From: a phage
Reading direction: 5' to 3' (one strand)
Length of the DNA stretch: 42,708 bases
Sequence record: QB031384.1
The notes under the pieces were generated by a model, which had not been told where the DNA came from, searched no databases, and worked only from the letters and a program-made list of their open reading frames with translations. How positions within the stretch are numbered: the stretch's first letter is position 1; each line of letters opens with the position of its first letter. This document shows positions 3,254-36,135 of this stretch, one piece after another. A program made the position numbers and the translations under genes.

Positions 3254-6200
3254 TTAATCTCCAAAGTTATTAATGATTGCACGGGTAGGCATGAACTCCT
3301 GCAAGAGCGGGAGACTACGGGACACGTCTTTAAGGTCTGCTTCTCCTGCTGCTACCTTCTGAATCAGTCCTAAGATGTTCATAGCATATCCAGTAGCGGT
3401 CAGGCTATGACGTGGGGACTGGTCGCTGAAGATATCAGTCACAAAGCTGAAGCCGCCTAGTATACTCATAGCTTTAACAGCTTCTGCGATAATCTTACCT
3501 TCTGATTCCTGCTTACCGTCAGCAGCGAAACGAGCTTGAGTAATAAGGTACATCAAAGGGAACTGATACGCAGCGAGATGGGCTAAGCCAATCCAGCCGT
3601 TATCACGGTATTCACGACGTAGAATCTTGTTAGTACCTGCTACAGCAAAGCTACCGTAACCAACTACTACGCGACCTACTGGACTGAACTGTGCAAAGTG
3701 AGAAGTCTCACCTACACGAATCTGCTGGATAACATGGTCCATTAGACGAGTACCAATAATCTCTAGCTGAAACTGTAAGTCATCTGGCAGTAAAGCATCA
3801 ACATCAGGACTAGCAGCAGCTTGCATACGCTTAGCAAGTTCAGGGTCAAGACCCCAACGCTGTAAACGCTTAGTAGCTTCTGCATCTCCGTTCAGCATGA
3901 GCTTAAGCTCATCCATTACGATACCTGCGTTAACGTTAGTCTGAAGACGATGCACCAGACCCATACCGTTTACGTGACGTGCAGCCTGACCGATGTTCTG
4001 AGTGATGTTAAACCAGCGGGAACTACGGGTAAGGTCTAAGTTATCATCAGCGTAAGAGTTCAACCAACGGAACCGAAGTTCCTTCTGAATGCTACCACGC
4101 AGGATAGAATCAAGACGAGCGGATTGACTAGCGTCTTTAGCGACAGCTGTAGCTTCCTTCCACCACTTTTCTTTCTTCATGCTGCGGAGTACTCGGGTCA
4201 TCCCGAACTCTTTCATAGCAAGCGCAGTATCTGCCAGCTGATACAAACCGGAGTTCTTAAGTACGGTGGCGTTGGCAAGGTTACCAGCAGCGCGGAATAT
4301 CTCCGGAACTTCTGAACCCTGAACAGGTGCGCCTACCATGAAGTCGATAGTATCATCTACATGCTTCTGATAACGGTCTGGGTCGCGTACTGTAGACTTA
4401 GCTGTGTTAATCATACCTTCCAGTGCATTCAAGTCAGTTACACCCGCGTATGCAAATGCTACACGACCTGATACACGGTTAGTATAACCTTGCATCTGCT
4501 TAGCTACGTCAGTATCCAGAATATCCGCCATACGCATAGCCTGGCCATTAACTATATACTCCTTCTGCAAGTCAAAGCGGTTACGAGTACGCAGGTTCTT
4601 AACCCGAGAAGTCTGAGTCGCTTCGCGTGCTACGTTAGTAGTAAGGAAGTTACGAATCTGGTCGTCTGCTACGCCTGCTGCACGCATTGCATCAACGATA
4701 ACTTCGTTGCCTACACCGCCCAGAATACTACGCCATGCCGGACCAGTCTGCTTAGACTTACCATCATAGATGCTTTCGAACATCTCACGAGCTACGCGAC
4801 CAGCAACCTCAGTTGTCATATCTGGGTAGATATCACGCAGGGCTTGACGGAACAGGTCGCGGTAGTCAGAAGCCTGACGCGCGCCAGTGTTAATCTGCTG
4901 ACGAATAGCATCGTAACTGTACGAGCGTGGGAAGTAGTAAGGACTACGCTTAATCTGAGAATCCACCTCAACCAGTCCAGACTTCTGGAGATGGTCATAC
5001 CATTTAGTAGCCCACTCAGAGTCTACATACGCCTTAACTAACGGGGCAATATCCTGAGGAGGGGTAGGAATCTCACGACCTGCTGTCTCCGCTGAGTATG
5101 CTTGGTCAAGGTATTGTGCAAGTTTAGACTCACGCTCACGACGAGCAGCTTTGAACTTGTTACGTTGCAAGAACGCATCCAGTAAACCAATACCATCTGC
5201 ACGCAGGGAATCAATAATGGCCTTCTCAACTACAGAGGCTGCACCATCAAGCTCTAACTGTAGGTTACGCTTATAGTCAGCTACAGAAGGACGACGTGCA
5301 CCTACTGCTGCGCCGTCAGCTACTAGCAGGTCTGCTAGGTCTTTAGAGCCTTCAGCAATGTTATCGTACAGGCTGAAGCTGCGAGCGAACGCCTTCTTAA
5401 AGCTATCTAACTGCTTAACTGCACCGTTAGCCGTATCGGCGAACTCACCATACTCAGATAATGCCTGAGACTTATAACGGGTAACACCACGCTCTTTAGC
5501 AGCTACATCCAGAAGCGCATCATAGGAATCAAGCACAGAGTTCAAGGCATTACCTTCTACCTTAGCACCTAATGCTTTAAGGATAGTTTGAGCAATACGA
5601 CGAATAGCACTAGCACCTTCTACTTCAGTATTACGCAGTAGCTTAACCAGACCTTTATCATCTGCAAGACCTGCAAGTAACTCTTCGTTACTGCTCAGGC
5701 TGTAGCGCATACGCGCATCAAGATTAGGACTAGTAAGAAGCTGCTCACGAATACGAGTAAGGTTAGTGGTAGCTTCCAATGCTTCTGGAGTACCAGACTG
5801 AATAGCGCGTACAGTAGCAGCATGTATAAGCTCATGCACAGCAATTTTAGCAGTATTAGAATCCAGGCCATTGATAGCATCTCCGTAGGTCTTCCAAGTA
5901 CGTGGGCCTTTCTTAGAGGCACGCAGGGTGACCGCATTGTTAACTAGGTTATAACGGCTAGAGATGTTAGTGTCACCTACGAGGTGTACAGGCACATCAT
6001 CTATGATACCGTCCAGTGAACGCAGCAATGCCTTCTGACCCTCATCCAGTACATCGCGTGCTAACAGGTTCTTAGTAACGTCACTTGCGCGTACACTTAC
6101 ACGAGCCTGCTGACCTTTCAGGATACGAATAGGTTTCTTAAGCGGGGTAGATTCTAAGGAATCAATCTTAGTAGTAAAGGCATCCGAGTCTGGAGCTGTA

Positions 6201-7024
6201 CGCTTAGTAGGAGCAGCTTCATCGAACTGCATTTCTGTACGAGTACTGCCACGAGTAGTACCAGTACTTGCATCTACAGCGTTACTAGCTGTGGTATCTG
6301 CTGCATCTTCCGTTGCACCTGCAACAGTACGCTGAACAGCACGGCTTGCATTAACTGCTTTGCGGATATCGAATAACTGGTCTACGCCTGATACTGCAGC
6401 TACTAATGCAGTGATACCTTCGGACTGTCCCAGCTGGTCCTGCGCATAGTACGCTGAACCTACGTCTGCTGCACGGATAGCTGAACGAACTGCTAAGCCT
6501 GCGCGACCTGCTACACCTGCGGCTGCAAACGGAGCTAACAGGGTAGGGGCGTCACCTAGAATAGAACCAGCGATACCAGACACGATGTTAGCGCTAGCAG
6601 TAGTATCACGCTCGCGCTGCTCCAGCATCTGTTCAATGCGGTAGTTATAATCATCCAAACTAACCGAAGTGCGTAAGTAATCAATTTCTTCCTGATTAGG
6701 GGTGTAAATTCTAGTCCGTGCATCTTTCTGGAGCATCTCCGTAGAGTTGAAGTCCAGGTCAGTTGGGAAGTCTGGAGAGAAAGCTTTGCGTAGACCTGCT
6801 GCGATAATACTGTTACCTGCACCAGCTATAAAGGACTGACCTGCAGTGATAGCAGCAGTACGAGCCTGGGCAGTATTAGATGCACGCTCAAGAGCGGAAG
6901 CACCTAAGTCTGTTGCATCACCCCAATTAACTGTAGCCTGAGGTTGTTGCACTTCAATGAGAGTATCTTGTTTAGCAGAATCCTTTATACCGGGACTAGC
7001 ATCTTGATTCAGGAACTGAGCCAT
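3254..7024 (-). CDS. Internal virion protein D-like (large ejection/core protein, T7 gp16 analogue)
   Basis: 1256-aa ORF between the gp15-like gene and the tail fiber. Size and position match T7/phiKMV synteny. No catalytic motif recognised by eye. Confidence 0.6.
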   Translation of the reverse strand: MAQFLNQDASPGIKDSAKQDTLIEVQQPQATVNWGDATDLGASALERASNTAQARTAAITAGQSFIAGAGNSIIAAGLRKAFSPDFPTDLDFNSTEMLQKDARTRIYTPNQEEIDYLRTSVSLDDYNYRIEQMLEQRERDTTASANIVSGIAGSILGDAPTLLAPFAAAGVAGRAGLAVRSAIRAADVGSAYYAQDQLGQSEGITALVAAVSGVDQLFDIRKAVNASRAVQRTVAGATEDAADTTASNAVDASTGTTRGSTRTEMQFDEAAPTKRTAPDSDAFTTKIDSLESTPLKKPIRILKGQQARVSVRASDVTKNLLARDVLDEGQKALLRSLDGIIDDVPVHLVGDTNISSRYNLVNNAVTLRASKKGPRTWKTYGDAINGLDSNTAKIAVHELIHAATVRAIQSGTPEALEATTNLTRIREQLLTSPNLDARMRYSLSSNEELLAGLADDKGLVKLLRNTEVEGASAIRRIAQTILKALGAKVEGNALNSVLDSYDALLDVAAKERGVTRYKSQALSEYGEFADTANGAVKQLDSFKKAFARSFSLYDNIAEGSKDLADLLVADGAAVGARRPSVADYKRNLQLELDGAASVVEKAIIDSLRADGIGLLDAFLQRNKFKAARRERESKLAQYLDQAYSAETAGREIPTPPQDIAPLVKAYVDSEWATKWYDHLQKSGLVEVDSQIKRSPYYFPRSYSYDAIRQQINTGARQASDYRDLFRQALRDIYPDMTTEVAGRVAREMFESIYDGKSKQTGPAWRSILGGVGNEVIVDAMRAAGVADDQIRNFLTTNVAREATQTSRVKNLRTRNRFDLQKEYIVNGQAMRMADILDTDVAKQMQGYTNRVSGRVAFAYAGVTDLNALEGMINTAKSTVRDPDRYQKHVDDTIDFMVGAPVQGSEVPEIFRAAGNLANATVLKNSGLYQLADTALAMKEFGMTRVLRSMKKEKWWKEATAVAKDASQSARLDSILRGSIQKELRFRWLNSYADDNLDLTRSSRWFNITQNIGQAARHVNGMGLVHRLQTNVNAGIVMDELKLMLNGDAEATKRLQRWGLDPELAKRMQAAASPDVDALLPDDLQFQLEIIGTRLMDHVIQQIRVGETSHFAQFSPVGRVVVGYGSFAVAGTNKILRREYRDNGWIGLAHLAAYQFPLMYLITQARFAADGKQESEGKIIAEAVKAMSILGGFSFVTDIFSDQSPRHSLTATGYAMNILGLIQKVAAGEADLKDVSRSLPLLQEFMPTRAIINNFGD

Positions 7025-7105
7025 TTATAAATCCTTAAAGGGTTGTGATAAAGAAGATAATAGAGCAGGGATACTGGAGGTGTATCCCGGCGCTGGAAGG
7101 GTTTT

Positions 7106-7134
7106 ATTATATCATGGATTTCATGATTCGTCAA
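7106..7134 (-). promoter_or_regulatory. Sigma70-like promoter (TTGACG - 17 bp - TGaTATAAT, extended -10) upstream of the gp16-like gene; copy A of an inverted duplicated element
   Basis: Minus-strand reading gives TTGACG (7129-7134), a 17-nt spacer, then TGATATAAT with -10 at 7106-7111. It sits in the 130-bp gap between gp15-like and gp16-like genes. About 40 bp is near-identical to 26624-26680 on the opposite strand. Confidence 0.4.
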
Positions 7135-7154
7135 ACCCTTTCTAAATATTTACA

Positions 7155-9851
7155 TTACTGACCAAGACGGACAGCTTGAACCGCTTGCCAATACTGAATC
7201 TCCAGGTACTGTTTACGCTTAGGTTGGGCTTGCTTATAAGCAGGCTGTTTCTTAAGTGTATCCAGCCCTACTAAAGACTGCGCTTGGAACGGGTCCTGCT
7301 GGTAGCCGTATGTCGCAGAGGAGCCTTGACCTTGTACTGATTTCAAGGTACGAAGAGCATCTGCTACAGGGGCGGAACTGCCGTTACCACCGTGATAGTT
7401 CAAGTCTACCAGAAGCTTCAGCCCAGAAGGGTCCTGAGTAATACCTTGCAGCTGTTTCTTAACCGCAGGGATGTACTGCTTCTCGAGAGAACCTTTCAAT
7501 ACCTCAATACCTTGTTCAGGAGTCAGGGATTCAGGAACTGGTAAGCCAGAGTTATCATGCAGACCAAAGCCTACGCTACCTTTCTTCTTAGTAGCACGGA
7601 AGCCTTCGAACTGAGCAGTAGTAGCTACGATGTCTGAGAAGAGGGCAGGTTGAATCCCAACACTGTTCTTGCCATTAACGTTCAGACTAATAGTACGTCC
7701 ATTATCAGCATCCCAGAATGTAGCAGGGCGAGAACCTACAGCCTTCTGACCAATCTCAATACCACCAGCTAGTGCTTCATCGTACCCAGCCTGAGCTAGC
7801 TGCTGAACCTGCTGCACGTCGATACTTACGTTCTGGTAGATACCGTCAGTAGTAAGGACAGAAGCAGTTAAGTTTTGACCCTGCGCACCAGCAGTACCTG
7901 CCTGCACGATTACACGGGAAACTTTAGAAGGGTCAGCTATGGCATCAACACTAGTTTGAATCTGCTGAGCAAGTGCAGTACGGAACTGTTCGGCATCCCC
8001 ACGATAAGAACCTTGAAGGTCTGCGAGTGTAGTACCAGCGGGAAGATAAACGTGACGCGGCTTACCTGATACTTCAACCTGCAACTGACGGGACTGGATA
8101 CGTCCCTTAAGAAGCGTGTTGATATCCTCCGGGGACTTACCTACCAGAAGTTCAGGGTTGCTACGGTACAACTGTTTATACTCTTCCTGTAATGCTACAC
8201 GTCCCTCCTGACGCTGCTGGTCCGCAGTATCACCAAAGCTAAACCAGTTAGCAGTAGACTCAGCATCAATAGCTGCTTCCGGAGGATTAGCTGGGAGGTT
8301 ATCATAGCGTCCGCTTGCACGGTTACGGGCTAAACGACGGATATCATCCAGAATGATATTACTAGCGTTAGACTGGCCCTGAGCAGCAGCACGTTGAATA
8401 ATACCACGGTACTCTTCAGGTACGTCACCGCTCAGTGCAATCTTATCTAAGTCACCGCCAGAGATGTACTGCTGTACCCAACCTGCGATAGCTGCGTTGT
8501 TCTCTGCACTAACTGTACCGTCCTCTGCGAGAGAGTCCAGCGAGGCTAAGGTGTTAGCCATTAAGCGTGAAGTACGCTGGTTAGCCTTCTGGATAAGTCC
8601 TGCATCTTTAGAGGTCTTACCGTACTGTAGAAGCGTAGCATTACCTACCGGAGTATCCGGGAACTGGTCCAAGATGAATTTCTGCGCTTTCTCTACATCC
8701 CCCTCGAACTGACCGGCAAGTACAGACGTAGGCTGACGATTATTAATCGCTATCTGCAACGCATACTTATCAGCTGCATCATCACGAAGCTTAGTAGCAC
8801 TGTTCCAGATATCAAGCTGAGTACCTGTGCTTAATACACCACTGCGCCCATACTGCTGTACTTGGGAGCGGATATTCTGTAAAGCTACTTCCTGCTGTTC
8901 CGGGGATGCACTACGGAGAGCTTCAAGCTGGTCAGCAATATCAAAGCGGACCTGTGCTTCCATCCGGGAGCCTGCACGCTTAAACTCAGTACGCAGTGCC
9001 TTAACGACATCTACAGAGTTAACACCGAGCTGCTCAGTTGCAATACGTTGAATACGGTCAATGACCAGAGGGTCAGTGGCATTCTGTGCAATAGATACAA
9101 GATAGTCCTGTACACGTGCAAACTTACTACTTTTATCGAGGTGCCCCGCACCTAGAATGGCACTCATACCAGATACTACAGCAGCGTCACCGGCAGGGAT
9201 ATTCCCGCTTTGGATATGGTTAAAGAACTCCTGACCGGAGGCACTTAAGTTCTGGTCTAATGCAGCATCTGCTCGCTGATTAGCAACTTTAGCGCGTCCC
9301 TCTTGGAAGGCGGCATAGTTAGCTGCGCTAGCTTGCTGCACCTGTGTAAGAGTAGCCGCAGCAGCCTGGCGGTCCAGCTGAGGTAGCCACTTGGATACTT
9401 GCTCAGAGAACTTAGCATTACCCTGTTGCTCTTGTAAACGAAACTCCTCATCAGACAAGCCTTGCGCTGCTGCGGAGTTAGCACGCTGAAGAGCGCCTAT
9501 ACGCCAGTCAGCAAGCTCACGACTTACTGCTGCGGAGGTGTAGCCTTGTGTATAAGAATCACGAAGGAATATGTTCTGCTGCTTAACCTTCTCATCTCTA
9601 GTAGCTTCTAAGTCGACAGCACCTTGAGCATCAAGCGCACCCTGTACAGCTGCCTTAGCGCCGTATACCTGGGCACGCTCAGAGAATCCTTCTACTGTTC
9701 CTTGAAGGAACTGACCAATAGCCTGACGCCTAGCTAATGCTGAGTCATCTACTGCTACTGCACCTACCGCCCCCTGTACTGCCTCAGTAGCCTGAAGCTG
9801 AACACCTTGAAGCTGCAAGCCTTGACGTTGTACACTTTGAGTAATAGGCAC
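7155..9851 (-). CDS. Internal virion protein C-like (T7 gp15 analogue)
   Basis: 898-aa ORF, Ala/Gln-rich and predicted helical, placed between gp14-like and gp16-like genes. Call is by synteny. Confidence 0.6.
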   Translation of the reverse strand: MPITQSVQRQGLQLQGVQLQATEAVQGAVGAVAVDDSALARRQAIGQFLQGTVEGFSERAQVYGAKAAVQGALDAQGAVDLEATRDEKVKQQNIFLRDSYTQGYTSAAVSRELADWRIGALQRANSAAAQGLSDEEFRLQEQQGNAKFSEQVSKWLPQLDRQAAAATLTQVQQASAANYAAFQEGRAKVANQRADAALDQNLSASGQEFFNHIQSGNIPAGDAAVVSGMSAILGAGHLDKSSKFARVQDYLVSIAQNATDPLVIDRIQRIATEQLGVNSVDVVKALRTEFKRAGSRMEAQVRFDIADQLEALRSASPEQQEVALQNIRSQVQQYGRSGVLSTGTQLDIWNSATKLRDDAADKYALQIAINNRQPTSVLAGQFEGDVEKAQKFILDQFPDTPVGNATLLQYGKTSKDAGLIQKANQRTSRLMANTLASLDSLAEDGTVSAENNAAIAGWVQQYISGGDLDKIALSGDVPEEYRGIIQRAAAQGQSNASNIILDDIRRLARNRASGRYDNLPANPPEAAIDAESTANWFSFGDTADQQRQEGRVALQEEYKQLYRSNPELLVGKSPEDINTLLKGRIQSRQLQVEVSGKPRHVYLPAGTTLADLQGSYRGDAEQFRTALAQQIQTSVDAIADPSKVSRVIVQAGTAGAQGQNLTASVLTTDGIYQNVSIDVQQVQQLAQAGYDEALAGGIEIGQKAVGSRPATFWDADNGRTISLNVNGKNSVGIQPALFSDIVATTAQFEGFRATKKKGSVGFGLHDNSGLPVPESLTPEQGIEVLKGSLEKQYIPAVKKQLQGITQDPSGLKLLVDLNYHGGNGSSAPVADALRTLKSVQGQGSSATYGYQQDPFQAQSLVGLDTLKKQPAYKQAQPKRKQYLEIQYWQAVQAVRLGQ

Positions 9852-17924: not shown

Positions 17925-18572
17925 TTAAGCTTCAGGTAAGTGATTGTATTTACCTAAGTAATGCCGTATATACTCGGCCCTTGCAGATAACATATCATCC
18001 GCTTGACCTAGATGTACTCCCGCTACTCGCACATAGAACTTACCTGCCGCGCTATTCCAAAAGAAACCTTTAGTTTGACCAGACTTACGATTCTGTGCAT
18101 TCTTAACTTGAGTAGATGCACGTAGGTTGGTTGGATTATTGTTTAGTGGGTTGTTATCTATGTGGTCGACTACCTCGGGCCAACTGCTATATGTCAGAAA
18201 GTACACCGCCCTACTAGCTGATAAAGTCTTGTTGAAAGCCCTGCCAGAATATGCTGTTCTCTGGCTACTCTGATACTTATGAGCACTAGTAACCTTACCT
18301 GACAGGGCAGGACTGCCTGCCTTAATCTTACTGGCAGGCCCGGTAGTCCCCACTAAAGGCCGTCTCCAGCTAACCCAGCTCTCAGAGGAAGCATCTACTT
18401 GAAGGTACACTGCAATAAGCTCTTCCGTAGATAGCCTGTTAAGCATTTCCTTATACTTAGGCATAGGTGGTCCCCAGTTATCTGGATTATCTAGGTACTC
18501 TTTTGTAGCATACTTCTGAACAGGAGGGTGCACGCACGCCATCCATATTTCCCAATCGGTCATCTTAGTCAT
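17925..18572 (-). CDS. HNH homing endonuclease with AP2-like DNA-binding domain
   Basis: 215-aa ORF. HNH-type motif VDHIDNNPLNNNPTNLR and AP2-like GFFWNSAAGKFYVRV...RAEYI. Free-standing between the RNAP gene and the structural module. Confidence 0.7.
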   Translation of the reverse strand: MTKMTDWEIWMACVHPPVQKYATKEYLDNPDNWGPPMPKYKEMLNRLSTEELIAVYLQVDASSESWVSWRRPLVGTTGPASKIKAGSPALSGKVTSAHKYQSSQRTAYSGRAFNKTLSASRAVYFLTYSSWPEVVDHIDNNPLNNNPTNLRASTQVKNAQNRKSGQTKGFFWNSAAGKFYVRVAGVHLGQADDMLSARAEYIRHYLGKYNHLPEA

Positions 18573-24943: not shown

Positions 24944-25924
24944 TTACTTCTTACGCCCTACCCAACGGCCGTCGGAATCCATCAGCATGGGGATGAGGCT
25001 CGGACAACCTTCGGTAATAGTCATGACACCTAAGATGGGCTTGTTACGTGAGAGCTTGCCGTATGCAAATGCCATTGCCTTATGATCAATCAAGCAACCT
25101 GCGTGTGCACCAAAGTACAGTGCTGTGCTGCTGGCCTTGTAAGTGATATCATACTTTCCATGCTCGTGGCCTATCACCATACTGGTACGTTCATGAGAGG
25201 CGTTCAGCATGAGGTCACCAGATACTTGATGCTGGAATCGTACAGGTCCGGTCGGAGTATTCAACACCCACGCATCCGACCAACTCCACTTCTTAGCCCC
25301 GTGCTCTGGGAACAGAATGTCACGGTACTTCTTAATGAATTGTACTGGTAAGCCATGTGCCTTAGCTCGACGATACACTAAGCTGCCGTGGTTGGAGTCA
25401 CACACCAGCAGGTTAGGGAAGAGGTCATGAATCTTAGCAAGATAAGCCTTAGCCTTCTCCAGTTCTACCCCCGCGCTATCTAGGTCAGGGTCAGAGTCGT
25501 GGAAGCTGATAGCGTGACCATCCGTCTCATCGCCTACCTGAACAACCATGTCAGGGCCGTAACTGTCTCTTACAGAACGAAGGAAAGCGAGAGCGTCAGG
25601 ATGTGTATAAGGAGCGTGCAAGTCTCCTACAACAAGGATGCGGTGGCACATATCAGGCACATTAGTATCGCCAATGTCGTCCGTAGGGGAAGGCTGAATA
25701 AGTTTACGAGCCTCGACCAAACCTTTGTTAGCTTTTGCTTTACTACCATTTGCGGCCTCATAAATTCTACGCCAGTACTTGACCAGCTGACGGTAAACTA
25801 CCGGCTCGCTCAGACCAGATGCTTCGTTATAAGCTGCTGCTGCCTCGACGTTAGATTTGTACTTGCTAAGAATCTCTTGATGTTGCTCTTTAGTGAACAG
25901 CTTAATAGCGTTAATGCGTGGCAT
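24944..25924 (-). CDS. Calcineurin-like metallophosphoesterase
   Basis: 326-aa ORF with metallophosphatase motifs in order: VVGDLHAPY, QVGDETDGH, CDSNHG, IGHEHG. Confidence 0.7.
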   Translation of the reverse strand: MPRINAIKLFTKEQHQEILSKYKSNVEAAAAYNEASGLSEPVVYRQLVKYWRRIYEAANGSKAKANKGLVEARKLIQPSPTDDIGDTNVPDMCHRILVVGDLHAPYTHPDALAFLRSVRDSYGPDMVVQVGDETDGHAISFHDSDPDLDSAGVELEKAKAYLAKIHDLFPNLLVCDSNHGSLVYRRAKAHGLPVQFIKKYRDILFPEHGAKKWSWSDAWVLNTPTGPVRFQHQVSGDLMLNASHERTSMVIGHEHGKYDITYKASSTALYFGAHAGCLIDHKAMAFAYGKLSRNKPILGVMTITEGCPSLIPMLMDSDGRWVGRKK

Positions 25925-26018: not shown

Positions 26019-26591
26019 TTACATTGCCCAATCAGGACGCTCACCCTTACCGCAGTAAAAGTCAATCAGGTCTAGTAAGCGCGGATAATACTTCAGCGAA
26101 CTCTTACCGTCCATTTCCGCAACCTGGCGCCTACTGAAGCTGCGCCACTCTGCTGCCGTATGCTGCTGACATCCTGCACGCACTATGTCCTTACAGATAC
26201 TAATGAAGTACGTTTCTCCGTATATAATGACAGTCTTGGCGCCGCGCAGGTCAGCGCGGCGCAGGTTAGCGCCGCGCAGGTCAGCGTAGCGCAGGTCAGC
26301 GTCGCGCAGGTCAGTACCGGTCAGGTCAGCGCCGCGCAGGTCAGCGATGCGCAGGTCAGCGTCGCGCAGGTCAGCGCCGCTCAGGTCAGCGCCGCGCAGG
26401 TCAGTACCGGTCAGGTCAGCGCCGCGCAGGTTAGCGTAGCGCAGGTTAGCGCCGCGCAGGTCAGCGTCGCGCAGGTCAGTGCTGCTCAGGTCAGCGTCGC
26501 ACAGGTCAGCGTCGCGCAGGTTAGCGCGGCGCAGGTCAACGCTGTGCAGTCTTCCTAACTTATATATTTCGCAGATTTCTTGATAGTTCAT
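26019..26591 (-). CDS. Pentapeptide-repeat protein 1 (about 21 tandem A(D/N)LxG-type pentapeptides plus 70-aa non-repeat C-terminal domain)
   Basis: 190-aa ORF with an unbroken run of [15 protein letters not shown] pentapeptides after the N-terminal cap [12 protein letters not shown]. Strand chosen because all flanking genes are minus-strand. Confidence 0.8.
26238..26549. repeat. Tandem array of about 21 copies of a 15-bp unit (CGCAGGTCAGCGNCG-like) encoding the pentapeptide repeats
   Basis: Periodicity is visible directly: gcgcaggtcagcg recurs every 15 bp, varying mainly at 2-3 positions per unit. Confidence 0.9.
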
Positions 26592-26623
26592 AGTTAACCT
26601 ATATGTAAAGAATTATTTATTAC

Positions 26624-26652
26624 TGGACAAATCCTGATATTCATGATATAAT
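26624..26652 (+). promoter_or_regulatory. Sigma70-like promoter on the plus strand (TGGACA - 17 bp - TGaTATAAT), antisense to all neighbouring genes; copy B of the inverted duplicated element
   Basis: Plus strand has TGGACA (26624-26629), a 17-nt spacer, then TGATATAAT with -10 at 26647-26652. Sequence is near-identical to the minus-strand element at 7095-7134. Confidence 0.35.
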
Positions 26653-26678
26653 AAAACCCTTCCTACGCAGGGCTACAC

Positions 26679-27182
26679 CTACTTCTCCACAACTTCATAC
26701 TCTCCATGATTAGGATGGAATCCATGTAACCGCTCGACAGCCTTTCTTGCTTTAACAGCAAGGGTAATATCTGTAAACAAGCCCAAGTGCATATAAATGC
26801 CATCTACCTTTATACGCGCACGCCACTTACCAGCATTCTTATCCCAGCCTACGCCGCATATGCCGCTGGTGTTGCTCGAGTGTAGCCTCATATTGCGGCT
26901 GTTAGTGCTTTGATTTACTAACCTTAGATTAATTAACCTATTATCATCTTTAATATGGTTAATATGGTCTATTTGCAAACCTGCCGGAATAGGTCCATTT
27001 ACCATCTCATAAATTATGCGATGTAATTTGTAAGTCTTACCCCTTACCATGACCTGCATGTAACCACGCTTGTTTAAGCAACCAGCTACCTCTCCTACCT
27101 TTGAAGCACTTCTAGGTAACCTAATCTTCCAAATCAAAGCCCCTGTATCTGGGCAGTAGTTGAATATACTATTCCAATCCAT
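26679..27182 (-). CDS. HNH homing endonuclease with AP2-like DNA-binding domain
   Basis: 167-aa ORF with HNH motif LQIDHINHIKDDNRLINLRLVNQSTNSRN and AP2-like GVGWDKNAGKWRARIKVDGIYMHLGLF. Second such gene in the genome. Confidence 0.7.
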   Translation of the reverse strand: MDWNSIFNYCPDTGALIWKIRLPRSASKVGEVAGCLNKRGYMQVMVRGKTYKLHRIIYEMVNGPIPAGLQIDHINHIKDDNRLINLRLVNQSTNSRNMRLHSSNTSGICGVGWDKNAGKWRARIKVDGIYMHLGLFTDITLAVKARKAVERLHGFHPNHGEYEVVEK

Positions 27183-27378
27183 AGTATTCCCCTTCTTCTA
27201 CTACAAGATATTCACAAGGTGCAAAAGTAAACTCCTCATCTTCATCTCCTAAATCAACCTCTCCTGTGTCAGGGAAGAACTCATATACTTCGTGAACACT
27301 GCCTACCGGGAATCTATCCATGTACTCGAACATCTCGCCTACACCATATGCACTGTAGTTAAGAATGCGAACTTTCAT
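27169..27378 (-). CDS. Hypothetical acidic protein (69 aa)
   Basis: First ORF downstream of the promoter-leader cassette at 27490-27638. Strongly acidic (DLGDEDEEF, VVEEGEYYGLE). Confidence 0.45.
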   Translation of the reverse strand: MKVRILNYSAYGVGEMFEYMDRFPVGSVHEVYEFFPDTGEVDLGDEDEEFTFAPCEYLVVEEGEYYGLE

Positions 27379-27489
27379 ATTGAATCCTCTTAAGTCTGCA
27401 ACCTCACCGCGAAGTTGCTTAACTAAGAGACTTCCTTAGCGAGTCTTATTTCTCTTAGACTCTCATCTGCATCGCACTGTATTACCTGT

Positions 27490-27638
27490 GCACGGGAGGA
27501 ACCGCTCAAGCTCGTACTATCTACCCAGAGCTTTCAGGAGGGCACCGGGATTAAAGTCCCCGGTGACTAACAAGCCGCTTTGCTATCTGCATCTCGTCTT
27601 GATGAAATGAATTCTACAGCATTCTAAAACTGTGTCAA
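27490..27638 (-). promoter_or_regulatory. Promoter-leader cassette R1: sigma70-like promoter (TTGACA - 16 bp - TAGAAT) plus conserved structured 5' leader
   Basis: -35 at 27633-27638 and -10 at 27611-27616. Downstream leader contains a hairpin (CACCGGG/CCCGGTG), GCCCTCCTGAA, a second hairpin with loop GGGTAGATA, and GAGCGGTTCCTCCCGT. Homologous to copies at 34406-34528 and 35943-36080. Confidence 0.55.
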
Positions 27639-27650
27639 CACTTATTTTAA

Positions 27651-28838
27651 TTAAATTACCTCTTCCTCTTTAAAGGATTTACCAATACCACATTCGGCGG
27701 GAAACTTAACTTCAGACAGTATGCCAAAGTTAGGCCACAACTGTAGCATCCTATCACGGGCTCCTTCCATAACGTTTTTGATGAGCTTACCCGCCTTACG
27801 GGCCGTCTCTTCGTCAGCACAATCTATGTACAAACAGTCATGGACGGTAACCAGCAAACACCATTTACCCCCCATCCAATTGTCAGCTATACCAGCCCTC
27901 ATAGCCATTCCGGTTGCAATAAGCATAAGCAGGGAACCTGATCCTTGAAACGGATAGTTAGCCATCTCTGTGGGCTTAAAGTCCATTACCTGCTTACCTT
28001 CGCGCCACACCGGCTTCTGACGGAAGCGGTAGCGAGTACCGCAAGGCGTAGTGAAGTAGCCCTCGCGATAGATACGCCAGCTGCCGTCATCTGCTTGTTC
28101 ACGGCGTATAGGCTCCAGCAGCGCAGTACGGTTTACTTCAGCTGCAATGACATCCCTGTACTTAATAGACTCAGGGAATAGTGCCTCCTCGTTAGCTAAG
28201 AACTTCTCAGCGTCGGCTAAGCTAGCACCTGAGGCGAACGCCAGTCCTTTAGCGGATGCTCCATATTGTGCTGCGAAGCTGAAGGTTTTGATGGCTGTTC
28301 GCTTCTTCTTCCATCCTTTATGGTCCGGTGCATCCGGGTTATGGCAAAGCTCGTAGACTTCTTCATAAGGCATACCTTCTTGGAATGCTAGACGATAGCA
28401 GTGCATATCCGTACCGGCTTCAAGCAAGCTCAGTAATTTCTTATCACCAGTGATTACACAGCCCATTACAACCTCCATAGCTGAGTAGTCACACTGTGCA
28501 ATCATACCCTGCTCACCATAGCGGCTACGCAGAATCTGCTTAACCTTAGACTCACGCGGCAGCTGCTGCATGTTCGGGTTAGATGTTGACAGGCGTCCGG
28601 TAGTAGTTGAGCAGTGATTCGACCTGTGGTGAATGATGCCAGAACCATCTGCTGATGTAGGGATGACGTACGGCAGCATGCCCGTCACCTTACGCAGACT
28701 GCCATCCTTATTAGTCTCACGTACTTCATAGAAGCCGAGGTCCTTCTGGCGTGTAGTCATTTCTTTGTATGCTTTGAAGAAGTCTGAAGCTAACTTAGCC
28801 ATCTTGTTCCATCCCAATAAAATAATGTGCAAGGTCAT
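27651..28838 (-). CDS. DNA polymerase, family A: polymerase (fingers/palm) part
   Basis: 395-aa ORF with TGRLSTSNPNMQQLP, motif A-like CDYSAMEV, motif B-like RTAIKTFSFAAQYG and motif C VHD. Overlaps the upstream exonuclease-domain ORF by 44 nt in a different frame. Confidence 0.85.
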   Translation of the reverse strand: MTLHIILLGWNKMAKLASDFFKAYKEMTTRQKDLGFYEVRETNKDGSLRKVTGMLPYVIPTSADGSGIIHHRSNHCSTTTGRLSTSNPNMQQLPRESKVKQILRSRYGEQGMIAQCDYSAMEVVMGCVITGDKKLLSLLEAGTDMHCYRLAFQEGMPYEEVYELCHNPDAPDHKGWKKKRTAIKTFSFAAQYGASAKGLAFASGASLADAEKFLANEEALFPESIKYRDVIAAEVNRTALLEPIRREQADDGSWRIYREGYFTTPCGTRYRFRQKPVWREGKQVMDFKPTEMANYPFQGSGSLLMLIATGMAMRAGIADNWMGGKWCLLVTVHDCLYIDCADEETARKAGKLIKNVMEGARDRMLQLWPNFGILSEVKFPAECGIGKSFKEEEVI

Positions 28839-29940
28839 TCATTGCGTCCGTTCCTGTGCTGTACACAGGGCTACCATCCGCTAATGTTTGAGCACCTTTG
28901 TATTCACCGCGGTCTCCGTACTTCTCACGTAGAGACTGAGGTAGGTCCTGAATATTAACCAGCCCGTCGAAGCGGTACAGGCGTTCACCCCACTTCATAG
29001 CTTGCTCGTCAGTGTCTACTTTTATGAACTTAGGCATACCCTTATTACGCCCAGACTTATACACCCCGTCCTGTACTTCCTTCTTAATGTATTTAGGTGG
29101 GTCATAAGGAACCTTGCACTTGTACTTAACCATGCCACCATACACTAAAGCGGACATATGATAACCGCTATTCCAGTTAAACTCGAAGCCCTCTGGCAAT
29201 TCTGGCAAGAATGTCTGAAGTAACTCCCGCAGATTCCGAATAGCGTCCTCCTGCTCCTTCTGGTTTACGCGTGCTGTAGGCATATCAACGTACACGCCAT
29301 TGAACTCACAGTATGCCAGAGCTGCGACTGCCTCCATCCTTTCCCAGACCATAGGCATCTGTCCACGTTCCGCAAATACTGCGCATTGCCCGTAGAAGCA
29401 CAGCGCTGTGTTGACTATGTCACCGTTAGGCCCTGTTAAGTATTCATGTAGTAGCATAGGGTCAATGTCTGCTGTCAGAACCCCTTGCTGCCATAGTAGC
29501 TTAACGCCGTCGACTTTGTGTGACCCGCCATACTTAGGGGCAGTCTCATCTAGTGACGGGTAAAGATTCTGGAAGTCGCTGGCAATGTACTCGCCCTGCA
29601 TAGTATCAAAGACTCGACCTCCTCGTCTAAGGAACGACTCGAACTGCTCACGGGCAAAGGTCAGCGCCCAGCTAATCTCGTACGCTGCGTTGTGCGCTAC
29701 GATTAACCACGTATCATCCTGAATAGGTAGCCACTGCTTAGGGTCAGCTGCTAAGAAATCAGTTCGGGATTCATAGCGTACACTCTGCACCTCGCTGCAC
29801 TGTACAGTCCCATCCGGCATAGTCCTATCAATGCGGAAGCCTGATTCTACGATGTAGTTATCAGGGCAGTACGGAGTTGCGACCCCGCCGTAGTACGGAT
29901 GATTTTGAGTTTCAATATCCCAAATTAGAATGCTACTCAT
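28795..29940 (-). CDS. DNA polymerase, family A: N-terminal 3'-5' exonuclease part (separate frame from the polymerase part)
   Basis: Exo I motif WDIET near the N-terminus. The ORF track starts it at a TTG (29946); the ATG at 29940 overlaps the upstream small ORF's stop as ATGA. Ends 44 nt inside the polymerase-domain ORF. Confidence 0.8.
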   Translation of the reverse strand: MSSILIWDIETQNHPYYGGVATPYCPDNYIVESGFRIDRTMPDGTVQCSEVQSVRYESRTDFLAADPKQWLPIQDDTWLIVAHNAAYEISWALTFAREQFESFLRRGGRVFDTMQGEYIASDFQNLYPSLDETAPKYGGSHKVDGVKLLWQQGVLTADIDPMLLHEYLTGPNGDIVNTALCFYGQCAVFAERGQMPMVWERMEAVAALAYCEFNGVYVDMPTARVNQKEQEDAIRNLRELLQTFLPELPEGFEFNWNSGYHMSALVYGGMVKYKCKVPYDPPKYIKKEVQDGVYKSGRNKGMPKFIKVDTDEQAMKWGERLYRFDGLVNIQDLPQSLREKYGDRGEYKGAQTLADGSPVYSTGTDAMNDLAHYFIGMEQDG

Positions 29941-30089
29941 TTCCAATTACTCCGACGTGATTTATTAATGGCTGCCCGTACAATCATCTCGCTACTGTCC
30001 AGCGTGTAGCGCCTAACCTGCTTACGATTGTTAGCAATTGCTCTGATGACTTCGTAGTCTGCCTCAGTAATATCACTTTGCTTTAGCAT
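29937..30089 (-). CDS. Small basic ORF (50 aa), not in ORF track
   Basis: ATG at 30089-30087 preceded by GGTGAGGTG; stop overlaps the DNA polymerase ATG. Translation MLKQSDITEADYEVIRAIANNRKQVRRYTLDSSEMIVRAAINKSRRSNWK. Confidence 0.35.
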   Translation of the reverse strand: MLKQSDITEADYEVIRAIANNRKQVRRYTLDSSEMIVRAAINKSRRSNWK

Positions 30090-33985: not shown

Positions 33986-34312
33986 TTATTTAACTCCTTT
34001 CGGTGTAGAAGACTTAGATTTAAAATAACTGTTAATGCGCTGGCAAGTCTTGCTACTAGGGCGGCAAGTGCGTTCACCACGTTCCTTGTACTCAGCGCTC
34101 TTAGCACTGCGCTGAGAGGCTTTATCTGACCAGTCATTACTAGGAATGGCTTCTGCTTTATAAGTATGCGTCATGAGCTTCTTAAGAGCTTTACGGGCCT
34201 CAGTACCCTCAGGCTTCTGTGCCAGCTGCACTAATTCACTACGATTAGCTTCTAACTTCTTAGCATCTTCAACAGAGATACCGAAACGACGTGCTTGAGC
34301 TTTAGCGTTCAT
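33986..34312 (-). CDS. Hypothetical basic protein (108 aa)
   Basis: First gene after promoter-leader cassette R2, with AAGGAG SD 6 nt upstream. Lys/Arg-rich, possibly nucleic-acid binding. Confidence 0.5.
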   Translation of the reverse strand: MNAKAQARRFGISVEDAKKLEANRSELVQLAQKPEGTEARKALKKLMTHTYKAEAIPSNDWSDKASQRSAKSAEYKERGERTCRPSSKTCQRINSYFKSKSSTPKGVK

Positions 34313-34405
34313 CTTAACTCCTTAGTGGTTTTATTAAAGCCCTCCGCAGAAGGCTTTGTAAAACTACTTTAGTTTCTTTCATCTCAGACCCACTGAATTA
34401 TCCGT

Positions 34406-34528
34406 GGACGGGAGGAACCGCTCGAGCCTGTTCTATCTACCCTAGGCTCTCAGAAGGGCAATCACTTAGCGTTGTTGATTAACGTCCTGCTATGAATCCA
34501 ACTATACTCCTATTTTATTTTGTGTCAA
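34406..34528 (-). promoter_or_regulatory. Promoter-leader cassette R2: sigma70-like promoter (TTGACA - 16 bp - TATAGT) plus conserved structured leader
   Basis: -35 at 34523-34528 and -10 at 34501-34506. Leader has a hairpin (AATCA/TGATT), GCCCTTCTGA, a GAGCC/GGCTC stem around GGGTAGATA, and GAGCGGTTCCTCCCGT. Confidence 0.55.
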
Positions 34529-34531
34529 CAC

Positions 34532-35197
34532 TTATTTTGAAATTCTTTCTGAAATATACACAAATCCCTTAGGAGTAAACTGCGCAGAGATGCGTGCAAC
34601 CTTTAATCTGTCAAAAGTAACCTTATGCTCCCCACGTTTAGCCTTTAGCCAGCCTGCACTGAATGTCCACGTACCATTCAATTTATACATATGCTTATTC
34701 TCTACCAGCCAACTTCTTACTTCAGCTTCAGTGTAAGATAAGAACTTACACATCTCACGGAAAGTCATAAGACCTGTAGTATCTACATAGTTACCTACGA
34801 ACTCAACCTTAGGCGCTGCTTCTTCTACCTTCTCTTGGAGCTTCAAGTTCTCTTCTGCGTAGTTCTGGAGAAGTCCCAGCAACTGCTTAGGGTCATGCAA
34901 GTTAATAGCAGGCTGACGTTGCTTACGCTCCAGCTCTTCCCAACGGTCAATGATACGGGCGCGCAGTTCTACATTGTAGCCAGAGATAATAAGTAATGTA
35001 TCACGTTTAGTTAAATGCCACTCGCGCTGTTGCTGATTATTATATCCGGCGTAAGTTACTGATTTACTTGATTGGCTCAAAACTGAGCCAATGCTTTCAA
35101 TGTCCCTAAGTACGTTCTTATGCAACTTACCAGTCAGCTCAGCAATCTCGCGGCTAGTCATGGTCTGTACATCAGTAGTAGTAGTTAAATCAAACAT
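34532..35197 (-). CDS. Rha-family regulatory protein with KilA-C/antirepressor-like C-terminal domain
   Basis: 221-aa ORF. N-terminal MTSREIAELTGKLHKNVLRDIESI matches the Rha signature as recalled. C-terminal half resembles antirepressor KilA-C domains. Confidence 0.55.
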   Translation of the reverse strand: MFDLTTTTDVQTMTSREIAELTGKLHKNVLRDIESIGSVLSQSSKSVTYAGYNNQQQREWHLTKRDTLLIISGYNVELRARIIDRWEELERKQRQPAINLHDPKQLLGLLQNYAEENLKLQEKVEEAAPKVEFVGNYVDTTGLMTFREMCKFLSYTEAEVRSWLVENKHMYKLNGTWTFSAGWLKAKRGEHKVTFDRLKVARISAQFTPKGFVYISERISK

Positions 35198-35543: not shown

Positions 35544-35882
35544 TTACGCATTATGTGCATTCTCCTCACAATACTGCAACGCAAAGCGCAGCAATTCATT
35601 ATACAGCGAAGTAGTCAGAATCCCTTCATTGTAGTACTCAGCCTCATGCTTACGGAGAGTATCCTTAGCAGCGCATGCAACCTTCAAGCTGCACCCTGTA
35701 GCCTGCATAAGGCCGCGTACAAGCTGTGTATCCTTATAAGCTTTCTTAGCATGCCATTTAACAAAACTTACTGCTGCACCTACAACAACCATACCACCCA
35801 TCACGACAAAGCCAATTGCACTAGACATATCATATACCTTTAATTCTGTACCCTCGCAGCGAGGATACTTAACTAAAGACAT
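35544..35882 (-). CDS. Hypothetical membrane protein (112 aa)
   Basis: First ORF after promoter-leader cassette R3. Contains one clear hydrophobic helix (GFVVMGGMVVVGAAVSFV). Confidence 0.45.
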   Translation of the reverse strand: MSLVKYPRCEGTELKVYDMSSAIGFVVMGGMVVVGAAVSFVKWHAKKAYKDTQLVRGLMQATGCSLKVACAAKDTLRKHEAEYYNEGILTTSLYNELLRFALQYCEENAHNA

Positions 35883-35942
35883 CTTAGCGAAGCTCTTGTC
35901 TCTTCAATCTAGTGAGCTTCTCATCTATTCCCTCTGTATAAC

Positions 35943-36080
35943 CCGAGGACGCTAGGTAACGCTCAGAACCTGTTTATCTACCCCGATTCTTCAGGAGGGC
36001 AGCGGCTTTATGTTATCCGCTAACGTCTTGCTTATGTCTTGCTATGTGATGAAGTATACGCTTCAAAACAGGTAAGTCAA
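35943..36080 (-). promoter_or_regulatory. Promoter-leader cassette R3: sigma70-like promoter (TTGACT - 16 bp - TATACT) plus conserved structured leader
   Basis: -35 at 36075-36080 and -10 at 36053-36058. Leader has a hairpin (AGCGG/CCGCT), GCCCTCCTGAA, an AGAAUC/GGUUCU stem (one G-U pair) around GGGTAGATA, and a diverged GAGCG...CCUC segment. Confidence 0.55.
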
Positions 36081-36135
36081 CAACTATTTTCAATTATTTC
36101 ATTCAGCGTAGTAAAATCTCGCACTATTAATAACA

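Follow-up and report, generated by a model that had tools for sequence, protein, structure and literature searches.

The window, by which we mean the whole 42,708-nt stretch of phage DNA analysed here, comes from a Slopekvirinae coliphage and carries on its minus strand the HNH gene recorded by the first-pass annotation, which is a genuine ORF (Table 1). The leader cassette and the pentapeptide-repeat gene given as its neighbours are both real, but a 69-aa ORF that separates the leader from the HNH gene, and overlaps the start of the latter by 14 nt, had been overlooked; it is this ORF that is the key to the insertion described below. The promoter-leader cassette upstream is a true repeat, with three copies in the window, and its sigma-70-like promoter is the likely source of a transcript carrying both the small gene and the HNH gene. 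Folding of the leader RNA gave an unremarkable minimum free energy (z = -1.37). The antisense promoter-like element, which in the window phage points into the HNH gene from its 3' end, holds up as a pattern (11/12 matches), but does not belong to the insertion. Its sequence hardly varies whether or not the HNH gene is there; it is kept in seven aligned lineages, is absent from L018, and reads as a perfect TTGACA-17-TATAAT in three of those seven; an inverted second copy is found at 7078..7155.

Table 1. Features at and around the HNH gene (coordinates of the window)
Feature	Position	Strand	Details
Pentapeptide-repeat gene, outside the mobile cassette	26019..26591	minus	Pfam Pentapeptide, 2.7e-37
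Antisense sigma-70-like promoter	26624..26652	plus	TGGACA-17-TATAAT, TG extension, 11/12 matches
Weak terminator-like hairpin and T-run	26655..26674	minus	6-bp stem, 8-nt loop; just after the shared stop
HNH (I-HmuI-like) endonuclease ORF	26679..27182	minus	167 aa, ATG to stop
Displaced native tail (EYEVVEK and stop)	26679..26702	minus	Last 7 codons and stop of the HNH ORF
6-bp direct repeat, right copy (GAGTAT)	26697..26702	minus	First two codons of the displaced native tail
Inserted cassette, 505 nt	26703..27207	minus	BLAST break points and MAFFT gap
Small early gene, host of the insertion	27169..27378	minus	ORF of 69 aa; PHROG 6862, unknown function
Substitute C-terminus from the cassette (LVVEEGEYYGLE and stop)	27169..27207	minus	Translations
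6-bp direct repeat, left copy (GAATAT)	27208..27213	minus	Alignments, read from the sequence
Sense sigma-70-like promoter of the promoter-leader cassette	27611..27638	minus	TTGACA-16-TAGAAT, 11/12 matches

The closest relative, phage P64441, is 98-99% identical to the window, and the sequence flanking the HNH gene is 94-100% identical, yet P64441 lacks the gene: a MAFFT alignment of the two leaves a 511-column gap at the HNH site, corresponding to a 505-nt cassette plus one copy of a 6-bp direct repeat. BLAST break points tell the same story, falling at 26702/27208 in the window against 3804/3799 in L001, with an overlap of 6 nt. The cassette is likewise absent from PAS7, ECO104 4-5-2 and the metagenomic contigs Ga0129314 and IMGVR_3300001598_000577. 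The earlier suggestion that the HNH gene is an insertion is therefore upheld by its nearest relatives, and synteny, which might have revealed the same block in the same context in all of them, instead revealed five empty sites. The cassette lies in a conserved early gene of 62 aa, 21 nt short of its stop codon; the empty-site sequence in P64441 reads ...CCCTCTGAGTATGAAGTTGTGGAGAAGTAGGTGTAGCCC..., with the insertion point between CCCTCTGAG and TATGAAGTTGTGGAGAAGTAGGTGTAGCCC. Exact scans of IMG/VR for both junction sequences and for the target sequence returned no match. The HNH gene has its own start, is read in another frame than the small gene, and is free-standing, in no intron or intein; no Rfam family reached the gathering threshold anywhere in the window, which covers group I introns and other structured RNAs, and between 26550 and 27700 nothing appeared even at an E of 1 or less.

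Base composition says little about foreign origin. The proposed GC and codon-usage profile did come out in the expected direction: the cassette is AT-rich (41.6% GC against 48.1% for the window, placing it at the 2.6th percentile among stretches of 505 nt), and no codon-adaptation value is lower. The test is nevertheless weak and not decisive, since the small gene already resident there has a GC content just as low (42%). Left of the cassette, three substitutions relative to P64441 are crowded within 8 nt upstream of or inside the left repeat while a further 170 nt upstream are identical, a pattern for which co-conversion is a possible explanation. To the right of the cassette all aligned lineages have the same sequence, and no tract of co-conversion can be seen there. 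A divergent patch of the phosphoesterase gene some 700 nt away (66-92% identity to P64441) was considered as a downstream tract and rejected, because 95-100% identical sequence intervenes.

In the window the tail of the interrupted gene is present twice. The small gene is 69 aa long in the window and 62 aa in empty-site relatives; it ends in EYLVVEEGEYYGLE and a stop, replacing the native EYEVVEK and stop. In an alignment of homologs the tail P-S-E-Y-x-V-V-E is invariant. The homologs fall into 38 protein clusters, 37 of them full-length, of which 35 have an SEY-type tail, mostly EYEVVE followed by E or K, without trace of the cassette. The cassette-type tail occurs in just one of the 38 clusters and in the window, or two of about 39 lineages. 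The substitute tail also contains a Shine-Dalgarno-like AAGGGG (27189..27194) positioned 6 nt ahead of the HNH ATG, which itself lies 14 nt before the substitute stop codon. Substitute and displaced tails agree in 12 of 21 nt, and of the 9 mismatches 6 are at third codon positions (P 0.002 including the repeat; 7 of 15 nt and P ~0.06 once the 6-bp repeat is left out), and on this alignment we regard the substitute tail as homologous to the displaced one, with the limited significance that so short a stretch affords.

The native tail has meanwhile been moved to the far end of the cassette, where it agrees at 24/24 nt with the end of the small gene in P64441 and supplies the last residues of the endonuclease. 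HNH family homologs terminate 0-9 residues past the sequence HPNHG, and tblastn alignments stop at residue 160-161, while both phage copies run on past HPNHG into EYEVVE, a final K or E, and the stop codon. Because homologs in unrelated phages end after HPNHG, the EYEVVEK end of the HNH protein is captured host sequence; in the AlphaFold model this last block of residues has a pLDDT of 64. Scans of metagenomes and IMG/VR with the small-gene alignment gave just two further empty sites. Extended small-gene tails in metagenomic homologs were also considered as additional insertions; three were looked up and none adjoins an endonuclease gene. L018 has an allele with substitute-tail codons but no HNH gene, and its pentapeptide gene adjoins the small gene, while the small-gene homologs P0132 and P0152 resemble other rearrangements, judged from their sequences.

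A second occupied site is found on SRR5452015_93944, a 1085-nt contig from a much more diverged phage, which carries the same cassette with identical junctions; these two are the only occupied sites known. The HNH nucleotides are 89.7% identical between the two carriers and the substitute-tail stretch differs by only 2 nt, against 66.9% identity for the small-gene body and 75% for the 112 nt downstream. Both HNH copies are full length, and they differ by 32.5 synonymous and 19.5 non-synonymous changes (dN/dS = 0.12). The cassette is far more conserved between the two carriers than are its flanks, and the substitutions indicate purifying selection on the nuclease gene.

The idea that the pentapeptide-repeat gene could have arrived together with the HNH gene must be abandoned: it is 95-98% identical in P64441 and is also present in PAS7, L017 and L018, all of which are without the HNH gene. 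The SRR5452015 contig ends 116 nt past the HNH stop, in a stretch that matches the pentapeptide-less arrangement of ECO104, and by this resemblance the pentapeptide gene is probably absent from that HNH-carrying phage as well. If so, all four combinations of presence and absence exist. From these distributions the pentapeptide gene and the antisense promoter-like element are both older than the insertion and vary independently of the HNH gene, and the former is no longer seen as cargo of the insertion.

The 167-aa protein matches Pfam HNH_3 (PF13392; E 6.1e-18, 64.6 bits against a cut-off of 24.8), covering the profile end to end (1-46 of 46), and PHROG 99, 'HNH endonuclease', at 7.7e-69. D72, H73 and N94 align without gaps to D74, H75 and N96 in the PDB sequence of I-HmuI (1u3e), which we take to be the catalytic Asp-His pair and the metal-binding Asn of that enzyme. 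D72, H73, N81 and N97 are invariant in 49 homologs, while N85 and N94 are at least 90% conserved. The AlphaFold model (pLDDT 93.3) is predicted to have the beta-beta-alpha-metal fold of a solved HNH homing endonuclease, and the best Foldseek match in the PDB is 1u3e itself (E 1.4e-4, probability 1.00). In both catalytic residues and modelled fold the protein thus matches the nicking homing endonuclease I-HmuI, and we refer to it as a putative nuclease.

Its C-terminal domain is AP2-like according to the predicted fold and not according to Pfam, in which AP2 (PF00847) falls below the cut-off (15.4 bits against 33.3, E 0.024) and matches just profile positions 2-23 of 54. In the model, residues 111-152 form three strands (111-114, 119-126 and 129-136) and a helix (139-152), arranged as a three-stranded antiparallel sheet packed on one helix in the manner of an AP2/ERF domain. 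After I-HmuI, the Foldseek matches are AP2/ERF domains (7et5, 7wq5 and 1gcc, including TEM1 AP2, WRINKLED1 and AtERF1) with probabilities of 0.98-0.99, although at E values of only 0.08-0.2; superposition on AtERF1 (1gcc) gives an rmsd of 2.1 A over 51 columns and a TM score of 0.59 on the target. Some homologs at 45-49% identity have a precomputed PF00847 match. HNH genes of T1-like siphophages supply the nearest database proteins, at about 50% identity, and phage records hold no relative above ~54% identity. The one close homolog in the protein collection is P0001 (89% identical), and a search of IMG/VR found relatives at no more than 45% identity, in unrelated contexts.

The neighbourhood had been described as an insertion hot-spot, and with respect to HNH genes this description is apt. 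Relatives have unrelated HNH genes at two nearby sites: directly after the DNA polymerase gene in PAS7 and ECO104 4-5-2, and, in ECO104 4-5-2, also between two polymerase ORFs. Because these phages carry them there, this part of the replication module can be said to host HNH genes repeatedly. They belong to the same Pfam family (HNH_3) as the window gene, but are only 26% identical to it, insert ~470 nt and 1.2 kb away, and none has a substitute tail; they are to be grouped with the 'genes in pieces' made by homing endonucleases. The window's other HNH gene (17925..18572, 215 aa) shares 31% identity with the 167-aa protein over 94 residues, in agreement with the little similarity first noted by eye, and since P64441 lacks both, the view that they are separate acquisitions is sustained. 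P64441 in turn has two different HNH genes at different sites, and the chief insertions and deletions separating it from the window are HNH genes.

We hypothesize, with good confidence, that the ~505-nt insertion is a free-standing HNH homing endonuclease cassette that invaded a small early gene of this Slopekvirinae coliphage. The HNH gene would be transcribed early from the upstream sigma-70 promoter, with translation coupled to that of the small gene. During co-infection with a cassette-less phage the enzyme would nick or cut the uninterrupted site, for which the AP2-like domain may provide sequence recognition, and recombinational repair would copy the cassette into the cut genome. The small-gene body would serve as one homology arm. 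The other would consist of the native tail, the hairpin and the antisense promoter; the hairpin lies within ~50 nt that vary hardly at all across the relatives, and this stretch probably serves as the right-hand arm. The carrier genome should be immune to its own nuclease, its site being split by the insertion and its substitute tail recoded.

It could be argued that the HNH gene is ancestral, and that P64441, PAS7, ECO104 and others have deleted it. The flanking 6-bp direct repeat could in principle mediate deletion, and L018, with its cassette-type tail retained, does look like an HNH loss. However, as 35 of the 37 full-length small-gene clusters are SEY-type with no trace of the cassette, an ancestral gene would require many independent, base-precise deletions. 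In occupied genomes, moreover, the tail is present as two copies that have diverged, which marks an insertion arriving with a tail of its own; the two cassettes are 89.7% identical where their flanks are 67-75% identical; and the EYEVVEK end of the protein was captured at this site, given that homologs in unrelated phages end after HPNHG. Gain at this locus is hence preferred, and ancestral presence seems to us very unlikely.

That the protein has instead been domesticated, as a nuclease or DNA-binding protein serving the phage, is unlikely, though less so. Possible roles would include exclusion of competitors' markers, support for recombination or replication close to the polymerase genes, and AP2-mediated control of the early operon, and the gene does lie in an early operon beside replication genes, between converging promoters, with an AP2-like DNA-binding domain that appears intact in the model. 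Its intact catalytic residues mean that it is not a pure regulator, and it is dispensable, being missing from the 98-99% identical P64441 and almost all relatives. The low dN/dS (0.12) fits such service to the phage, but an active homing endonuclease is also expected to show purifying selection. A role as a packaging cofactor of the HK97 gp74 type was rejected, given the gene's distance from the terminase genes and its absence from relatives. Hardly any weight attaches, finally, to the gene being the decaying relic of a past invasion, its frame open by chance and its product inactive or immobile. Homing endonuclease genes often degenerate once fixed (PMC2248197), and a C-terminus fused to foreign codons and a weak Pfam match to AP2 would be in keeping with this common course, but both copies are full length, their 32.5 synonymous and 19.5 non-synonymous differences bear the imprint of selection (dN/dS 0.12), all conserved catalytic and structural positions are retained, and the fold is predicted with confidence.

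A selfish homing cassette at this site offers a base-precise case of a nuclease gene entering a compact phage genome while leaving the interrupted gene unharmed. Four HNH genes at four sites account for most of the difference in gene content between two coliphages that are otherwise 98-99% identical. In phage engineering and in the genomics of phage therapy, this HNH gene should be regarded as dispensable and as potentially mobile, and its empty site offers a ready-made candidate target for a new putative site-specific nickase.

In most respects this is an otherwise routine homing endonuclease gene, a known kind of element. HNH_3/PHROG 99 proteins with AP2 or IENR1 domains are exemplified by those of SPO1, T1, T5, Rtp, RB43 and Xp10/OP1/Xop411. 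Like the phage endonucleases of the I-HmuI/HNN-HNH-AP2 (or IENR1) type, the window protein has the catalytic module D-H...N...N; the gene for I-HmuI lies in a DNA polymerase gene, inside a group I intron, but that of the window is free-standing and intron-less. Endonuclease genes of the 'HNN-AP2' class are dispersed in phages, including those of Xanthomonas (PMC2248197), and share with the window protein a C-terminal AP2-type domain, here a predicted one. Lee et al. saw no conservation of flanking sequence and suggested that spread is independent of sequence; here, two lineages have identical junctions.

Free-standing endonuclease genes of the T4 type provide a precedent in intronless homing (PMC2993671; see also PMC2988022 and PMC2790892). 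Like segF, segG and mobE, the window gene encodes a putative nuclease, stands free between or within conserved genes, and is patchy in its distribution among near-identical phages. T4-type intronless homing proceeds by break-induced recombination in co-infection, with co-conversion of the flanks, and the same would be expected of the window cassette. The Seg enzymes are GIY-YIG nucleases and mobE is an HNH enzyme of a different subfamily, their genes usually lying in intergenic gaps. The window cassette, unlike T4-type genes, sits inside coding sequence and has a replacement C-terminus.

The closest architectural parallel comes from the fungal mitochondrial elements known as mORFs, found in atp6, atp9, cox2 and nad3 of Allomyces macrogynus, Glomus, Rhizopus and Mortierella, in which an inserted C-terminal segment is followed by an endonuclease ORF and the displaced native C-terminal segment, the displaced copy matching relatives without the homing endonuclease gene exactly and the inserted copy diverged in DNA while conserved in protein (PMC3630166). 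The window cassette has in common with these an in-phase foreign C-terminus, an endonuclease ORF and a displaced native tail, and, as in mORFs, the native tail is the one that matches the empty site (24/24 nt with P64441, against 12/21 nt for the inserted copy). However, mORF endonucleases are LAGLIDADG or GIY-YIG enzymes of mitochondria, while the window enzyme is an HNH protein in a phage genome; duplicated segments are 50-300 nt in mORFs and 21 nt in the window; and only in the window does the endonuclease itself end in the translated displaced tail. By this comparison we would call the cassette mORF-like in its architecture and not a member of the mORF group, because it is an HNH enzyme in a phage genome and the likeness is one of architecture. 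It is tempting to speculate, though somewhat against our own expectation, that phage homing cassettes can invade coding sequence without an intron or intein by way of a recoded replacement C-terminus, which would also supply the ribosome-binding site of the endonuclease and disrupt the cleavage site, with the endonuclease borrowing the displaced tail and its stop codon; such cassettes would be the phage counterpart of fungal mORFs, with the near-invariant hairpin and antisense-promoter element, which might also be an antisense brake on the nuclease, as a universal homology arm.

Megablast assigns the region to a coliphage of the Slopekvirinae (Autographivirales) whose genes all lie on the minus strand. 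Its nearest record is Escherichia phage vB_EcoP_P64441 (PQ847473; P64441 below), at 98-99% identity across most of the genome, followed by PAS7 (OQ921331) and ECO104 4-5-2 / S.Kent 1-2-1 at ~80%. Homology to P64441 reaches window position 26702 and restarts at 27208, and 6 nt of P64441 match both sides, so that the window holds 505 extra nt, flanked by a direct repeat (GAATAT/GAGTAT). Judged from this alignment, the HNH gene, a genuine ORF, is an insertion with base-precise junctions. Synteny comparison bears out the insertion proposed in the first-pass annotation: the 505-nt block is absent, at an intact site, from P64441, PAS7, ECO104 4-5-2, the metagenome contig Ga0129314_1000457 and IMGVR_UViG_3300001598_000577. 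At these five empty sites a small early gene of 62-65 aa ends in ...SEYEVVE(K/E) and stop (...SEYAVVGE in the last), and a nearly invariant hairpin and promoter stretch of ~50 nt directly follows.

Features of the window
Feature	Position	Strand	Remark
Inverted copy of antisense element	7078..7155		late region
Gene following the inverted copy	3254..7024
Other HNH gene	17925..18572		215 aa, after RNA polymerase gene
Replaced segment	21076-21953		after RNA polymerase gene
P64441-only HNH genes (173 aa, 141 aa)	near 23450/23480 and 30290/30311		junctions
Phosphoesterase gene region	24944-25924		mosaic patch
Pentapeptide-repeat gene	26019..26591
Shadow ORF	26160-26558	plus	AAQVS repeats
Antisense element with hairpin	26603-26680
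Antisense promoter-like element	26624..26652	plus	TGGACA-17-TATAAT
HNH ORF	26679..27182	minus	167 aa
Cassette	26703..27207		505 nt
Small gene	27169..27378	minus	69 aa
Promoter-leader copy	27375-27660	minus	sigma-70-type promoter, ~230-nt leader
Strong sigma-70-type promoter in a leader copy	27638..27611	minus	TTGACA-16-TAGAAT
DNA polymerase ORFs	27651-28838 and 28795-29946	minus	family A, 44-nt overlap
Promoter-leader copy	34290-34550	minus	sigma-70-type promoter, ~230-nt leader
Promoter-leader copy	35830-36100	minus	sigma-70-type promoter, ~230-nt leader

At the occupied site the small gene runs on into the cassette, terminating as ...CEYLVVEEGEYYGLE and stop. It overlaps the HNH start by 14 nt: the HNH ATG lies 14 nt upstream of the substitute stop and 6 nt downstream of a Shine-Dalgarno-like AAGGGG. 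The HNH gene had been placed between a promoter-leader repeat and a pentapeptide-repeat gene; both flanks are real, but the small gene, overlooked at the time, intervenes on the leader side. The HNH ORF itself finishes as ...HPNHG-EYEVVEK, its last codons and stop being the displaced native tail of the small gene. Homologs of the HNH family terminate 0-9 residues past HPNHG and the last block of the ORF is poorly ordered in the predicted model; the EYEVVEK tail is therefore host sequence captured by the HNH gene.

Among 5.8 billion proteins searched, one close homolog came up, 89% identical; it is encoded on a Logan contig of 1085 nt from SRR5452015, with left and right junctions identical to those of the window, the same substitute tail (EYLVVEEGECHGLE and stop) and a captured tail of the same type (EYEVVEE and stop). 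Identity is 89.7% in the HNH ORF, 66.9% in the small-gene body and 75% over the downstream 112 nt, values by which the cassette is flanked there by a much more diverged lineage. A dN/dS of 0.12 between the two HNH copies points to purifying selection on the protein. Counted over small-gene homolog clusters, the cassette is a rare element, its type of tail occurring in 1 of 38 (SRR5452015 only).

The protein matches Pfam HNH_3 (6.1e-18) and PHROG 99 (7.7e-69), and its sole PDB sequence match is the nicking homing endonuclease I-HmuI, whose D74/H75/N96 stand opposite D72/H73/N94 in a gap-free alignment; in a set of 49 homologs, D72 and H73 never vary and conservation of N94 is at least 90%. The AP2 label misses the Pfam cut-off (15.4 vs 33.3 bits) but agrees with the predicted fold: the confident model (pLDDT 93.3) has a domain of three strands plus a helix at residues 111-152, and its best PDB matches are I-HmuI and then plant AP2/ERF domains (1gcc, rmsd 2.1 A over 51 columns). 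The feature is a predicted member of a well-known class, the free-standing HNH(-AP2) homing endonuclease genes.

Cassette GC is low (41.6% vs 48.1% for the window, 2.6th percentile), and among 18 long ORFs the codon-adaptation index (0.616) sits at the low extreme, but the resident small gene is equally AT-rich (42% GC), which makes composition weak support for foreign origin. Over the first 21 nt of the cassette, 6-bp repeat included, 12 agree with the displaced tail, and third codon positions hold 6 of the 9 mismatches between the two tails (EY-L-VVE-E vs EY-E-VVE-K). On an HNH-free contig, L018 (ENA ERZ928929; 2640-2770), the small gene terminates in ...SEYIVVEEEFITQ and stop, with GTAGTAGAAGAAG codons the same as those of the substitute tail. 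Together, these mismatches and codons make the cassette 5' end look like a foreign allele of the C-terminus of the same gene, a suggestive likeness between short sequences. L018, without the conserved hairpin and antisense-promoter stretch, may represent a donor-type allele; alternatively, its lineage may have lost the HNH gene plus this element. Three substitutions relative to P64441 within the 8 nt left of the cassette, preceded by 170 identical nt, fit a short co-conversion tract, equally suggestive at this length.

The neighbours have other histories. The pentapeptide-repeat gene is genuine, but its supposed arrival with the HNH gene is contradicted by HNH-less P64441, which has it at 95-98% identity; PAS7, L018 and a further related sequence, L017, have it too, likewise without the HNH gene. 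It is probably missing downstream of HNH in SRR5452015, which stops 116 nt past the HNH stop and, after the hairpin/promoter element, resembles the pentapeptide-less ECO104 arrangement. A divergent phosphoesterase gene was rejected as a co-arrival, ~700 nt of 95-100% identical sequence lying between it and the cassette. Opposite the pentapeptide-repeat gene is a shadow ORF whose PAS7 counterpart (L002 2999-3502) carries the annotation 'modular polyketide synthase', apparently in error. The inverted promoter-like element reported at the HNH 3' end is present as a pattern match (11 of 12 consensus positions), with a small hairpin directly after. Almost invariant in seven aligned lineages and a perfect TTGACA-17-TATAAT in three, it did not, on this comparison, come with the cassette. 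It sits where the small early gene ends and points against all genes; the inverted copy (77% complementary) is in sense orientation ahead of a gene. Possible roles are antisense RNA, transcription interference or a replication primer. The promoter-leader repeat noted beside the HNH gene proved to have three copies with a common leader core (TGCCCTCCTGA...GGGTAGATA...GAGCGGTTCCTCCCGT...AGATGA), no Rfam match found and unremarkable folding stability (z = -1.37); the leader is possibly an RNA processing or regulatory site.

The two window HNH genes share little sequence, as the first-pass annotation had it (31% identity over 94 residues). Four indels against P64441 are HNH genes, two window-only and two P64441-only; the 215-aa gene is among those in the window and not in P64441. 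Immediately after the polymerase, a different HNH gene is found in PAS7 and ECO104 (69% mutual identity, 26% to the window's), and ECO104 has an additional HNH_3 gene between two polymerase ORFs, giving, with the window's, three distinct HNH sites within ~2 kb. The hot-spot idea is thereby upheld, and agrees with nuclease genes marking exchange boundaries in phages, as reported in PMC10448857. The observation and the insertion and hot-spot readings thus stand; pentapeptide co-arrival does not. The DNA polymerase is likewise annotated as two ORFs in P64441 and PAS7; in ECO104 4-5-2 (L014 3773-5331) the HNH_3 gene (180 aa) separates what are apparently the polymerase halves, which suggests that endonuclease insertion either left the split behind as a scar or uses it as a site. 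Elsewhere, the phosphoesterase region has 66-92% identity to P64441, and a DNA methyltransferase stands in P64441 in place of the replaced segment; 99-100% identity around both patches indicates recent exchange by recombination with other lineages.

The TTGACA-16-TAGAAT promoter probably drives early transcription of the HNH gene, and its translation is probably coupled to that of the small gene. If the enzyme acts like I-HmuI, it is probably a nickase with site specificity, its AP2-like domain serving target recognition. During mixed infection it would damage the intact tail of the small gene in phages that lack the cassette. Recombinational repair would then install a copy of the cassette there, the small-gene body and the invariant element downstream acting as homology arms; a split site and a recoded left copy would protect the carrier. 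More speculatively, the antisense promoter, now facing the HNH 3' end, could dampen HNH expression.

The one interesting detail of the cassette is its substitute-tail/captured-tail arrangement within coding sequence, which is like that of mobile ORFs. The fungal mitochondrial mobile ORFs have the same architecture, in which an in-phase inserted C-terminal is followed by an endonuclease ORF and then by the displaced native C-terminal, the latter identical to that of endonuclease-free relatives (PMC3630166).
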